Under the pieces are notes generated by a model. It did no database searches. It worked only from the letters and a program-made list of their open reading frames with translations, and was not told the origin of the DNA. A program made the translations under genes and the position numbers. 5,073 nucleotides of DNA from a virus (taxonomy: Duplodnaviria > Heunggongvirae > Uroviricota > Caudoviricetes), in IMG/VR virus record IMGVR_UViG_2541047825_000005; one strand, 5' to 3'. Position 1 is the first letter of the stretch. Every line of letters starts with the position of its first letter. Positions 2,803 to 4,976 of the stretch are shown here, in pieces.

Positions 2803-3063
2803 ATGCAATCACCATTACGAAATGTGCGTAAGGCGCACGGGTTTACTTTGCAGCATGTTGCTGCGGGCGTTCAGGTTAATCCAGCAACGCTGAGTCGTAT
2901 TGAGAGACTGGAACAAATTCCATCTATCGATCTTGCAGAGCGTCTGGCCAATTTTTTTAAGGGTGAAATCAGCGAAATGCAGATTCTTTATCCGGCACGT
3001 TTTCAATCTAGCCAAAACCAGAATGGGTTTAAACCACAGGAACAGGAGGTAAGCCGTGGGTAA
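2803..3063 (+). CDS. Cro-like XRE-family HTH regulator, 86 aa
   Basis: ATG at 2803 with GGAGG 4 nt upstream. HTH segment GFTLQHVAAGVQVNPATLSRIER. Divergent from the CI-like repressor across the operator region. Confidence 0.85.
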   Translation: MQSPLRNVRKAHGFTLQHVAAGVQVNPATLSRIERLEQIPSIDLAERLANFFKGEISEMQILYPARFQSSQNQNGFKPQEQEVSRG

Positions 3064-3607
3064 GCATCACTGGAAAGTGGAAAAACAGCCTGAGTGGTAC
3101 GTGAAAGCTGTCAGAAAAACTATCGCGGCGTTGCCGGGGGGTTACGCTGAAGCTGCTGAGTGGCTGGATGTAACAGAGAACGCTTTATTCAACCGCCTTC
3201 GTGCAGATGGCGATCAGATTTTCCCGCTGGGATGGGCAATGATTTTACAGCGCGCGGCTGGCACTCACTACATTGCGGATGCTGTCGCACAGTCTGCAGG
3301 TGGGGTGTTTGTATCGCTTCCTGACATTGAGGAAGTTGAGAACGCCGATATAAACCAGCGCCTGCTGGAAGTCATCGAACAGATCGGGAGTTACTCAAAA
3401 CAGATTCGTTCGGCAATCGAAGATGGGGTAGTGGAGCCACACGAGCAGACAGCAATTAATGATGAGTTGTATCTGTCAATTTCGAAGCTCCAGGAGCATG
3501 CAGCACTGGTCTACAAAATCTTTTGCGCTCCAGAAAAGAGTGACGCCCGCGAGTGTGCAGCTCCGGGCGTCGTGGCGTTTTGTGTCTGTGGAGAAACTAA
3601 CGCATGA
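3056..3607 (+). CDS. Phage early regulatory protein, 183 aa, possibly CII-like/YdaT-family (family assignment uncertain)
   Basis: GTG start at 3056 preceded by GGAGG (3043-3047) with a 6-nt spacer, overlapping the cro stop by 8 nt. Protein-like composition. Putative HTH-like segment AEWLDVTENALFNRLR. Position immediately after cro matches the cII / ydaT slot. Confidence 0.7.
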   Translation: MGKHHWKVEKQPEWYVKAVRKTIAALPGGYAEAAEWLDVTENALFNRLRADGDQIFPLGWAMILQRAAGTHYIADAVAQSAGGVFVSLPDIEEVENADINQRLLEVIEQIGSYSKQIRSAIEDGVVEPHEQTAINDELYLSISKLQEHAALVYKIFCAPEKSDARECAAPGVVAFCVCGETNA

Positions 3608-3752
3608 ACAGTTTAACGGCAAATAACCGTTTGTCGCAACAGCTGGTGGTCAGTGTCGCTGAACACCTGTTGTTACGGCATGAATGCAGATTACCAAATC
3701 ACCTGGCTGTAAGTAACCACAGAGAACTTTACCTGACTGTGGGGGGCGAGTT

Positions 3753-3932
3753 GTGCAGGAACTTAACCGCTGGTTTCGTGACGGAAGAGGGCTTTATGTT
3801 CATGTTATTCGTTGGGAACCAGAAACACAGCGCGTTATCTATCTTCGCAAAGACTACCCGCATGAGTGCTTTAGTCCTTTGTGGAAATTCAGGCGTGATT
3901 TTGTTGAGTGTGAAGGACCACCAGCACATTGA
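3753..3932 (+). CDS. Candidate small ORF (59 aa, GTG start) in an alternative frame to the long stop-free frame; hypothetical
   Basis: G6 tract (3741-3746) acts as a possible SD, with a 6-nt spacer before GTG at 3753. Translation VQELNRWFRDGRGLYVHVIRWEPETQRVIYLRKDYPHECFSPLWKFRRDFVECEGPPAH has normal Asp/Trp content but is Arg-rich. Below the length cut-off of the supplied ORF track. Unverified. Confidence 0.25.
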   Translation: MQELNRWFRDGRGLYVHVIRWEPETQRVIYLRKDYPHECFSPLWKFRRDFVECEGPPAH

Positions 3933-4017
3933 TTCTGCCATTCCGGGACGTTACACTGTTCAGGCACCTTATAAAGCGGGTGCCGGGCGTGGAAACTCGG
4001 AATTCACCAAAGCGCAC

Positions 4018-4040
4018 AACCGCGCTCTTGCGGTTTTTTT
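4018..4040 (+). terminator. Terminator-like hairpin with T7 run on the plus strand (tR1-like position); also carries the boxA-like heptamer CGCTCTT
   Basis: Stem AACCGC (4018-4023) pairs with GCGGTT (4030-4035) around loop GCTCTT, followed by TTTTT so the T-run spans 4034-4040. Only 4 GC pairs, so a weak stem. It lies inside the stop-free frame 3604-4209. Confidence 0.3.
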
Positions 4041-4209
4041 GTGTAATGAGCAGCATTACGCCCAAATTATGGTGGGGCGTGCAGGGCCAACTTCGGTTGG
4101 GCCGGGTTCTTTGGTGACCGGTATTTCCACCCCTGTACGTCTCACCACCAATAAGGTCGTGGAAAGCCTTGGTGGTGAGTTATTAAAAATCACCAAAGAG
4201 GCTGCCATC

Positions 4210-4755
4210 ATGGCTACGATCCCAACCCTCACTCAACCTGAAATTGCCATCGTTGATGGTCAGGCTGTTACTTCATCCCTGGCTGTTGCCAACTTCTTCT
4301 CCAAACGTCATGACGATGTACTGAAAAAGATCCGCACGCTTGAATGCTCTGCATCATTCACTTCCCGCAATTTTTCGGCGAGTGATTACACCGATTGCAC
4401 AGGCCGCAAACTACCTTGCTATCAAATAACCCGCGACGGCTTTGCGTTTCTTGCTATGGGTTTCACGGGTAAACGTGCTGCCCAGTTCAAAGAGGCATAT
4501 ATCAATGCCTTTAACCAGATGGAGAAACAGCTTTCAAAGCCCGCTGTACCGAGCGACGTTGCACATAACGCCAGCGTTCTCTGTTCCTACATTTCATCAA
4601 TTCATCAGGTCTGGCTGCAGCAGCTTTATCCTATGTTGGCAAAAGCCGAATCTCCGCTGGCTGTTAGCTTATATGATTATATTAATGATGCTTCGGCGCT
4701 GGCCTGCCTCATAAATTTGTCGCTGAACCCTTCAGAGGTAAGGGGGCGCAAATGA
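4210..4755 (+). CDS. Rha-family phage regulatory protein, 181 aa
   Basis: ATG at 4210 preceded by AAGAGG (4196-4201) with an 8-nt spacer. N-terminal segment IAIVDGQAVTSSLAVANFFSKRHDDVLKKIR...YQITRDGFAFLAMGFTGKRAAQFKEAYINAF matches the recalled Rha N-terminal domain signature. The frame is open upstream to ATG 3604, so a 383-aa version cannot be excluded. Confidence 0.8.
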   Translation: MATIPTLTQPEIAIVDGQAVTSSLAVANFFSKRHDDVLKKIRTLECSASFTSRNFSASDYTDCTGRKLPCYQITRDGFAFLAMGFTGKRAAQFKEAYINAFNQMEKQLSKPAVPSDVAHNASVLCSYISSIHQVWLQQLYPMLAKAESPLAVSLYDYINDASALACLINLSLNPSEVRGRK

Positions 4756-4976
4756 TCCGGAATATTTTCAAACGTTTTACCAATCAGACTTTCCGTTGTC
4801 CTCGTCCGGGTCAGTGGTACACCACGCCTGCAGGGCATGTTCTACGTGTTAGCCTGGTTGACCGTGAATGTCAGAAGGTGGTTTGTGAACCGCTGGGCCG
4901 TAATTACCGCGTCAGTATGCCGCTTATAGCCTTTCGCTCCGGAAAAAACATGAAGCATCTCGGAGGTGCTGCATGA
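4752..4976 (+). CDS. Hypothetical small basic protein, 74 aa
   Basis: ATG at 4752 overlaps the rha stop (ATGA) with GGGGG 5 nt upstream. Its stop overlaps the next gene's ATG (ATGA at 4973-4976). Arg-rich and Asp-poor, so coding status is not certain. Confidence 0.5.
   Translation: MIRNIFKRFTNQTFRCPRPGQWYTTPAGHVLRVSLVDRECQKVVCEPLGRNYRVSMPLIAFRSGKNMKHLGGAA

Follow-up and report, generated by a model that had tools for sequence, protein, structure and literature searches.

A P4-type switch of nested genes and immunity RNAs probably lies between ymfL and rha of a lambdoid prophage

What lies between the CII-like gene ymfL and the gene rha in the early-right operon of a lambdoid prophage? We addressed this question in the 5,073-nucleotide (nt) stretch of viral DNA held as IMG/VR record IMGVR_UViG_2541047825_000005 (the window; the genes, RNAs, target sites and promoter-like element described below are on its plus strand), where the operon order is cro, ymfL, the region in question (3604-4209), rha, orf74 and replication genes. 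An earlier note, made from the sequence alone, had offered four explanations of the region: a long Rha-family protein with a novel N-terminal domain, a frameshifted pseudogene or sequencing indel at a run of six G (G6), a small basic protein gene, or a regulatory untranslated region. None of these is right alone; three are partly true together and one is rejected. We conclude, at a probability of about 75%, that the region is a P4-type set of nested genes with an immunity RNA switch. Control systems of this kind are known, but the place is new: the host element is a lambdoid prophage, the target is Rha and an extra gene is overprinted.

The question arises from the reading frame that crosses the region. 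ymfL (3056-3607; its RefSeq name) encodes a CII-like protein of 183 amino acids (Pfam Phage_CP76, 54.9 bits), and its TGA (3605-3607) is overlapped, as ATGA, by an ATG at 3604 whose frame is open up to the stop at 4753-4755. This frame has 383 codons, 202 of them ahead of the rha ATG at 4210. As the earlier note had argued, such a stop-free run of 202 codons is improbable: (61/64)^202 is 6.1e-5, local base composition gives 3.7e-5, and 200,000 shuffles give 4e-5. Hence, with P of about 4e-5 to 6e-5, the run is beyond chance. The odd composition that the note had reported is exact (2 Asp, 0 Trp and 9 His in the 202-residue part; 9 Asp in the 181 residues of the Rha part), and its other elements are all present: a hairpin, AACCGCGCTCTTGCGGTT, with a T7 run at 4018-4040, which a terminator scan also picks up; the G6 tract at 3741-3746 and a 59-codon GTG open reading frame (ORF) at 3753-3932; and the ribosome-binding site (RBS) of rha itself, AAGAGG at 4196-4201, 8 nt ahead of its ATG.

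We searched the window with all Rfam families, using gathering scores as thresholds, and found two RNA genes within the long frame. An RNA like IsrK and P4 seqA occupies 3964-4040 (RF01394, 62.5 bits for a gathering score of 50, E-value 4e-12, positions 1-77), and an antisense RNA of the C4 / P4 CI type occupies 4065-4152 (RF01695, 83.6 bits for a gathering score of 45, E-value 5e-16, full length 1-87). The IsrK-like RNA is 77 nt long, and the C4-type RNA, of 88 nt, begins 24 nt further on. The intrinsic terminator at 4018-4040, which is the hairpin and T7 run just mentioned, forms the 3' end of the IsrK-like RNA. The regulatory region proposed earlier is thus made specific, namely as an IsrK-like gene and a C4 antisense RNA gene together with their cognate targets. 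RNAs of the C4 class, to which P1/P7 c4, P4 CI and N15 CB belong, are cut from a longer precursor by RNase P and repress in trans. Neither RNA is marked in the annotated public records examined.

The locus is common, its region being matched in 2,884 of 5,426 complete E. coli genomes and in 214 phage records. We found the isrK-C4 pair in the same order and at the same spacing in all 13 related phage loci examined (14 modules), which include mEp460, 1720a-02, ST64B, Stx1 and Stx2 phages, a P2-like phage, N15, and Hafnia and Yersinia phages; P4 itself also has the pair. For a broader collection, an IMG/VR sample was taken independently of ORFs. The pattern first used for collection, AATTATGGTGGNNNNNNNGGGG, mismatches the C4 of the window, which has AGGG there, and it therefore sampled other variants; modules were then defined by nhmmer, giving 112 full modules, 71 of which are unique. 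Folding 26 diverse modules together with RNAalifold gave a consensus of 37 pairs; 18 of them show compensatory double changes, and almost none is broken. Compensatory changes occur in the IsrK stems, too, and the 252-nt read-through RNA folds far better than its shuffles (z = -4.3), with the rha RBS in a local hairpin at 4156-4215.

The C4-type RNA of the window has exact complements on both sides. Its a' segment, TTTCCAC at 4124-4130, is complementary to GTGGAAA both in IsrK (a1, 3989-3995) and upstream of rha (a2, 4159-4165). Its b' loop (4106-4117), taken as CTTTGGTGA (4109-4117) or TCTTTGGTGA (4108-4117), has the exact complement TCACCAAAG in IsrK (b1, 4004-4012) and the 10-nt exact complement of 4108-4117, TCACCAAAGA, upstream of rha (b2, 4190-4199). 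The b2 site overlaps the Shine-Dalgarno sequence of rha, AAGAGG (4196-4201), and the layout of a1/b1, c4 and a2/b2 is that of P1/P7 immI and of P4 (seqA, CI, seqC). Loops could be extracted in 50 of the 71 unique modules, and the recognition elements in these 50 are diverse, with 28 distinct b' loops and 19 a' segments. We found that b' and b2 form a mean of 10.7 contiguous pairs when cognate and 6.2 when non-cognate; the corresponding values for b' and b1 are 8.9 and 5.7, with a similar pattern for a1 and a2. Loops and targets co-vary across related phages.

Some phages carry the unit of isrK, C4 and nested gene in two or three tandem copies that differ in their a'/b' specificities (locus L007 at 1711-1899 and 2367-2555; L042 at 7740 and 8393; L122 with three modules about 855 nt apart). 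Tandem modules would mean several RNA-gated antirepressor-like genes in a row.

The 59-codon ORF, in the +2 register of the long ORF, proved to be the small-protein gene that had been among the earlier alternatives. It encodes a DUF4222 protein (PF13973, 51 bits for a cut-off of 27), matches phrog_1343 over 59 of 59 positions and is annotated by PGAP in some genomes. Its length is exactly 59 codons in four lineages (the window, ST64B, the Stx1 phage and the prophage e14). Between the window and ST64B, 14 of 20 changes are at third positions, the nonsynonymous and synonymous rates (dN/dS) are 0.04/0.55, and identity is 93% in DUF4222 and 70% in the long frame; the values against the Stx1 phage are 29 of 42, dN 0.10 with dS saturated, 86% and 45%, and those against e14 are 38 of 70, dN 0.35 with dS saturated, 64% and 29%. 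Overall, DUF4222 has a dN of 0.04-0.12 within the three closer lineages, rising to about 0.35 for e14, and its dS ranges from 0.5 to saturated; dN/dS is about 0.07 against ST64B, and third-position changes are listed as 14/20, 29/42 and 28/44. The dN/dS comparison, which the earlier note had named as a way to find the coding frame, reveals strong purifying selection in the 59-codon frame and does not favour the long frame, where dN exceeds dS over DUF4222. The 59-codon ORF is a real, separate, conserved gene.

A search for relatives with DUF4222 returned only sequences 97-98% identical, and these were used for the counts of G6 tracts and frame integrity; more distant homologues were sought by tblastn against phage records. 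In distant phages (of Klebsiella, Yersinia, Citrobacter and Morganella), the DUF4222 gene stands directly upstream of a replication gene, and stops occur in the overlapping frame in several of them. Citrobacter phage phiNP has an unannotated DUF4222 homologue (locus L221, 1201-1368) between a rha-family gene and the replication gene O, and its order of rha, DUF4222 and O differs from the order of DUF4222, switch and rha in the window. NCBIfam has no model for DUF4222, YmfM or orf74.

We found a promoter-like element within the long frame at 3929-3957. Its -35 hexamer, TTGATT (3929-3934), overlaps the DUF4222 stop codon, and after a 17-nt spacer its -10 hexamer, TACACT (3952-3957), stands 6 nt from the first base of IsrK. 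A TTGAYN-17-TAnAnT pair occurs at the identical offset upstream of isrK in 60 of 60 distinct contexts.

The long ORF itself (3604-4755, 383 codons) is the counterpart of P4 eta, as judged from its open frame, its Phage_ASH and Phage_pRha matches and its frame-conservation statistics. It consists of a ymfM-like N-terminus (about 3604-3930), an Ash region (3952-4242) co-encoded with both RNAs, and Rha. In Pfam, the full product matches Phage_ASH (PF10554) at residues 117-213 (56 bits) and Phage_pRha at residues 223-308; the 202-residue part alone matches Phage_ASH at residues 117-201. The Phage_ASH match spans exactly the DNA that encodes IsrK, C4 and a2/b2. The Ash part is conserved because its DNA encodes RNAs, and the conservation of the Phage_ASH family is largely that of the two RNA genes.

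Maintenance of this frame was measured in 33 unique window-type modules, which were chosen by spacing alone; P2-like modules, with their Ash frame 304 nt past the b2-controlled ATG, were excluded from the statistics. We found the rha frame stop-free from IsrK to rha in 29 of the 33. In these 29 modules the rha frame has 0 stop sites, compared with 21 and 17 distinct alignment positions (38) for the other two, a skew whose P, if stops fell equally on the three frames, is about 2e-7. The modules measure 240, 243, 246 or 249 nt, the only exceptions being two 245-nt modules among the four that have in-frame stops. The frame is also uninterrupted from the ymfL-overlapping ATG to the end of the nested gene in all 78 close relatives (63 unique sequences), with a total length of 243-387 amino acids, whichever nested gene comes next. 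When DUF4222 is recoded synonymously, the long frame stays free of stops in only about 4% of cases; nevertheless, the window, ST64B and Stx1 lineages all keep it open over the whole of DUF4222, and e14 keeps it open over most of that gene, up to a stop about 20 nt short of its end, with synonymous divergence saturated in all four lineages. The DUF4222 start follows the long ATG by 149, 143 or 179 nt, in each case 2 mod 3. Modules that lack DUF4222 have their long-ORF start 51-81 nt ahead of isrK, mostly overlapping an unrelated upstream gene as ATGA. From these sequence comparisons, the long frame appears to be kept open by selection, which was an unexpected result.

Several points weigh against a P4-type switch with a translated long frame. 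Because the modules share descent, the stop-site statistic treats them as more independent than they are. The promoter-like element matches only 8 of 12 consensus positions, and for this reason a simple promoter scan (threshold 9/12) missed it. An intrinsic terminator lies inside the frame, and its suppression by translating ribosomes is assumed. The amino-acid sequence of the first ~110 codons evolves freely (dN>dS, as noted for the stretch over DUF4222), and the first 50 codons are poorly conserved (dN/dS 0.27 against ST64B, and barely alignable with e14). Hence, a functional N-terminal protein domain is unsupported. Four of the 33 window-type modules and the modules of the Gifsy-1/N15 type do without the long frame, which is therefore not essential to the RNA switch. 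Frame maintenance alone is what suggests that the long frame is translated.

Given these points, the region could comprise separate genes only, namely DUF4222, the two RNAs and rha from 4210, with the 3604 frame untranslated beyond chance initiation and open merely as a by-product of conserved stop-free RNA, shared descent and luck. We regard this as unlikely. It would account for the excess of dN over dS across DUF4222, for the atypical composition and for the strong RBS that rha has of its own, and it agrees both with the Gifsy-1/N15-type modules and the 4 of 33 window-type modules that work without a long frame and with the stops that distant phages have in the frame overlapping DUF4222; conserved RNA cores also stay stop-free in a given frame through conservation alone. 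However, the variable parts (the 28 b' loops, the 19 a' segments, hairpins and spacers) changed often, and stops still number 38 in the other frames versus 0 in this one. The length variants are all multiples of 3, an open frame across DUF4222 has about a 4% chance per lineage, and the ATGA start/stop overlap recurs in many unrelated contexts. In addition, translation of the homologous P4 eta and its anti-termination role were shown experimentally, according to the account in PMC10111431.

The long Rha-family protein of the earlier note is partly upheld, in that the frame appears to be kept open and has homology to P4 Eta and Phage_ASH, but the novel folded N-terminal domain is not borne out. 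That a folded extension of about 200 residues precedes Rha, with Ash as a protein module, is in our judgement very improbable, even though Pfam Phage_ASH and phrog_821 (324 amino acids) model the region as protein, the frame is conserved and several phage records annotate the long frame as a single coding sequence (CDS). Ash conservation follows RNA logic, in that paired columns change together and loops co-vary with targets; the first ~110 codons are without amino-acid constraint; Ash is found fused to downstream proteins that are unrelated to one another; and a promoter, a terminator and a strong RBS are internal to the region. A stand-alone 202-residue protein was rejected, too. The pseudogene or assembly indel at G6 is hardly credible. 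The homopolymer does adjoin the frame change, and a 1-nt slip there would join the upstream frame to the 59-codon frame, but the tract (3741-3746) is G6 in 77 of 78 close relatives, GGGTGG in the remaining one and GGGGGA in ST64B, so that its length, whose variation the earlier note had proposed to check, is constant throughout, and the fused product is found in no relative. We dropped this explanation. DUF4222, with its 59 codons in four lineages, has its own start at GTG 3753, 6 nt after the tract and thus at Shine-Dalgarno distance, and the equivalent e14 start is a TTG preceded by an AAGGAG RBS; the G6 tract is likely the DUF4222 Shine-Dalgarno sequence, not a slippage site.

Public names for the long ORF conflict, with proteins of 383, 381, 385 or 340 amino acids called 'Rha', 'peptidase', 'transcriptional regulator' or 'Ant'. 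PGAP places a 297-residue 'Rha family' CDS from ATG 3862 (3862-4755; L001 4363-5256), overlapping DUF4222.

How might a P4-type switch of this layout work? By analogy with P4 eta/kil, P1 c4-icd-ant and Gifsy-1 isrK-orf45-anrP, we infer the transcription start, RNA processing, termination and long-frame translation at this locus. In the lysogen, the operon promoter would be repressed and the internal promoter alone active. Most transcripts from the internal promoter would end at the IsrK terminator, and the read-through RNA would be processed to C4, which would pair with a2/b2; the local hairpin at 4156-4215 would also sequester the rha RBS. With C4 pairing and this hairpin over the RBS, we propose, Rha, an antirepressor-like regulator, would therefore not be made. 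The untranslated RNA would probably be terminated, and the decoy sites for C4 in IsrK could relieve the block.

During lytic growth, transcripts would start upstream, after derepression of the cro promoter, and ribosomes would pass from ymfL into the long frame and through the RNA region. Such translation would prevent RNA folding, antisense pairing and termination, and C4 immunity would then no longer affect expression of the long Ash-Rha form or of the replication genes downstream. The odd composition of the 202 residues fits a sequence determined by two RNAs and a gene in another register, not by protein function.

The gene under control, rha (4210-4755), is nested in the long ORF and encodes 181 amino acids (PF09669, 108 bits for a cut-off of 29.9; TIGR02681, 105.5 bits for a cut-off of 45.95). 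It occupies the place of P4 kil and of P1 icd/ant, and the Rha N-terminal domain is common to anti-repressor PHROGs. Nested genes of relatives encode Rha, ORF6N, AntA/AntB, a derepression protein and Kil-like proteins. The first ~10 residues, MAT(I/V/T)P..., are common to unrelated nested proteins (Rha, proteins of 77 and 81 amino acids, and P4 Kil). Hence, the module boundary is about 10 codons inside the regulated gene (4210-4245 in the window).

Downstream, a 74-codon ORF (orf74, phrog_1153; 4752-4976) overlaps the rha stop as ATGA and is followed by a replication-type gene. Its start (ATGATCCGG, 4752-4760) is identical to that of the long Ash ORF in the two-module phages L007, L042 and L128, and this shared start of orf74 and the long Ash ORF looks like a recombination joint for module shuffling. 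In the P2-like modules (L011, L023, L077 and others), the Ash frame, about 304 nt past the b2-controlled ATG, differs in register from the ORF of a 76-residue 'derepression protein', so two overlapping open frames lie downstream of the switch.

The N-terminal third of the long frame (3604-3932, the first ~110 codons) is the counterpart of ymfM of e14 in E. coli K-12 (L138, 3323-3681). As in the window, e14 ymfM has an ATGA overlap with ymfL, starts with MNSLT... and keeps the same register to an embedded 59-codon DUF4222 ORF. In contrast, its frame ends at 112 codons, immediately ahead of the replication gene, with no isrK, C4 or rha next, and over the DUF4222 overlap identity to the window is about 29% in the long frame versus 64% for DUF4222. 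e14 ymfM is annotated as the cell division inhibitor SfiC; about 2,000 E. coli genomes have an e14-type locus, and among the records listed the annotation is in the DUF4222 frame. The ymfM preprint (10.1101/2020.11.19.390815) cloned the annotated ORF and, in the text available, describes neither frame-specific mutants nor detection of the protein. Codons 1-53 of DUF4222, with their own RBS, are part of that clone. It is possible, and we offer it tentatively, that DUF4222 and not the YmfM frame is behind the e14 SfiC division block, with the ymfM-type frame serving mainly for ribosome transit and kept open only to let translation from ymfL run on into what lies downstream, which in the window includes the RNA switch. 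Purifying selection on DUF4222 and its reach to Klebsiella, Yersinia, Citrobacter and Morganella phages are compatible with DUF4222 as the division-block product; the excess of dN over dS and the stops in several distant phages are compatible with a ribosome-transit ymfM frame.

The P4-type switch would place an RNA immunity layer of the P4/P1 kind, with many specificity variants and even tandem copies, between the CI/Cro switch and the replication genes. Such a layer would be present in common E. coli, Shigella and Salmonella prophages, including Stx-converting phages, and would be a second checkpoint on antirepressor-like proteins and, hence, on induction. Recognising both RNAs should aid annotation and studies of prophage induction. 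Coding would also be compact, with one DNA stretch serving as translated frame, out-of-register gene, promoter, terminator, and two RNAs with their targets.

Some further observations concern other parts of the window and of related loci. An inverted repeat of 25 nt (1339-1363 and 1403-1427), whose arms are 84% complementary and 39 nt apart, lies within a hypothetical gene that RefSeq annotates as frameshifted (L001, 1809-2119), and it matched no Rfam family. A scan of the window for tRNA and tmRNA genes found nothing, and the idea of a tRNA-like element was rejected. Near the modules of two relatives, Rfam matches sRNA-Xcc1 (79.6 bits; Stx phage P13771, L012 2420-2503) and ryfA (134.6 bits; Yersinia phage vB_YpM_44, L014 106-404).

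Which known system does the region resemble most closely? The P4 eta ORF (8168-8812, minus strand) contains the isrK and C4 matches; the window's ...QIMVGRAG...ITKEAAIMATIPTLTQPEI corresponds, in frame with respect to C4, to ...SMVAQAG...YSQEAAIMATTLTPSHPEF there, and P4 Eta scores 82 bits with Phage_ASH, the window 56 bits. According to PMC10111431, which cites Sabbattini 1995 and Forti 1999, P4 has a promoter within eta whose transcript undergoes termination through CI/seqA, Kil is a shortened form of Eta, and full-length eta is translated only from the upstream promoter, coupled to the upstream gene, with translation preventing termination; the same source describes the Rfam C4 and isrK models as detecting relatives of CI and seqA. 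The window shares with P4 the same Rfam pair (isrK = seqA, C4 = CI) in one ORF and one frame, a promoter (in the window, a promoter-like element) inside the long ORF, and stop/start coupling of the long ORF to the upstream gene. In both, the nested short gene starts at ...EAAIMAT..., right past the downstream target, with kil and rha beginning at the same Met. The two differ in that the window belongs to a lambdoid prophage with a CI/Cro switch, whereas P4 is a satellite; the nested gene is Rha (181 amino acids) instead of Kil (65 amino acids); the isrK-C4 spacer is 24 nt instead of about 107 nt; DUF4222 is overprinted in the N-terminal part of the window's ORF; and the long ORF is coupled to a CII-like gene in the window and to an AlpA homologue in P4.

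With P1/P7 immI the window shares a C4-family a'/b' pair with a1/b1 upstream and a2/b2 downstream (Citron & Schuster 1990, as cited in PMC8198154), a b2 that masks the RBS of the next ORF, a downstream product of the antirepressor class, and specificity set by the loop and target sequences. The window differs from P1/P7 in being without an icd-like leader ORF between C4 and the regulated gene, and from P1 in the nature of the latter, a plasmid prophage whose operon carries C1 operators.

The Gifsy-1 locus of Salmonella has the order isrK, orf45 and anrP, where orf45 overlaps a processed RNA, STnc1160, and anrP is antirepressor-like; the short IsrK RNA activates translation of orf45 and, by coupling, of anrP, and AnrP leads to prophage induction (PMC4825925). 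The window resembles Gifsy-1 in having an IsrK-family RNA with terminator and read-through, a C4-like processed RNA downstream (processing being predicted in the window), and alternative RNA structures that hide the RBS. Likewise, an AUG near +107 opens a frame towards an antirepressor-type gene: the ATG at 4069-4071, in the 5' end of C4 and in the long frame, is the positional counterpart of the first AUG of orf45, at position 106 from the IsrK +1 compared with 107 in Gifsy-1. In contrast to the window, Gifsy-1 has a TGA two codons before this AUG, a 45-codon orf45 that ends in an ATGA overlap on anrP, and no long upstream frame in that register, and AnrP-type proteins have ORF6N and not Rha. 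Gifsy-type modules of the sample show this TGA as well, and the 45-codon ORF from their ATG in C4 likewise overlaps the next gene as ATGA. The window has CAA at the position of the Gifsy-1 TGA and has no separate orf45-type leader, its frame being continuous from ymfL to rha. Hence, with no stop between the ATG at 4069 and rha, the architecture is that of P4 and not that of Gifsy-1.

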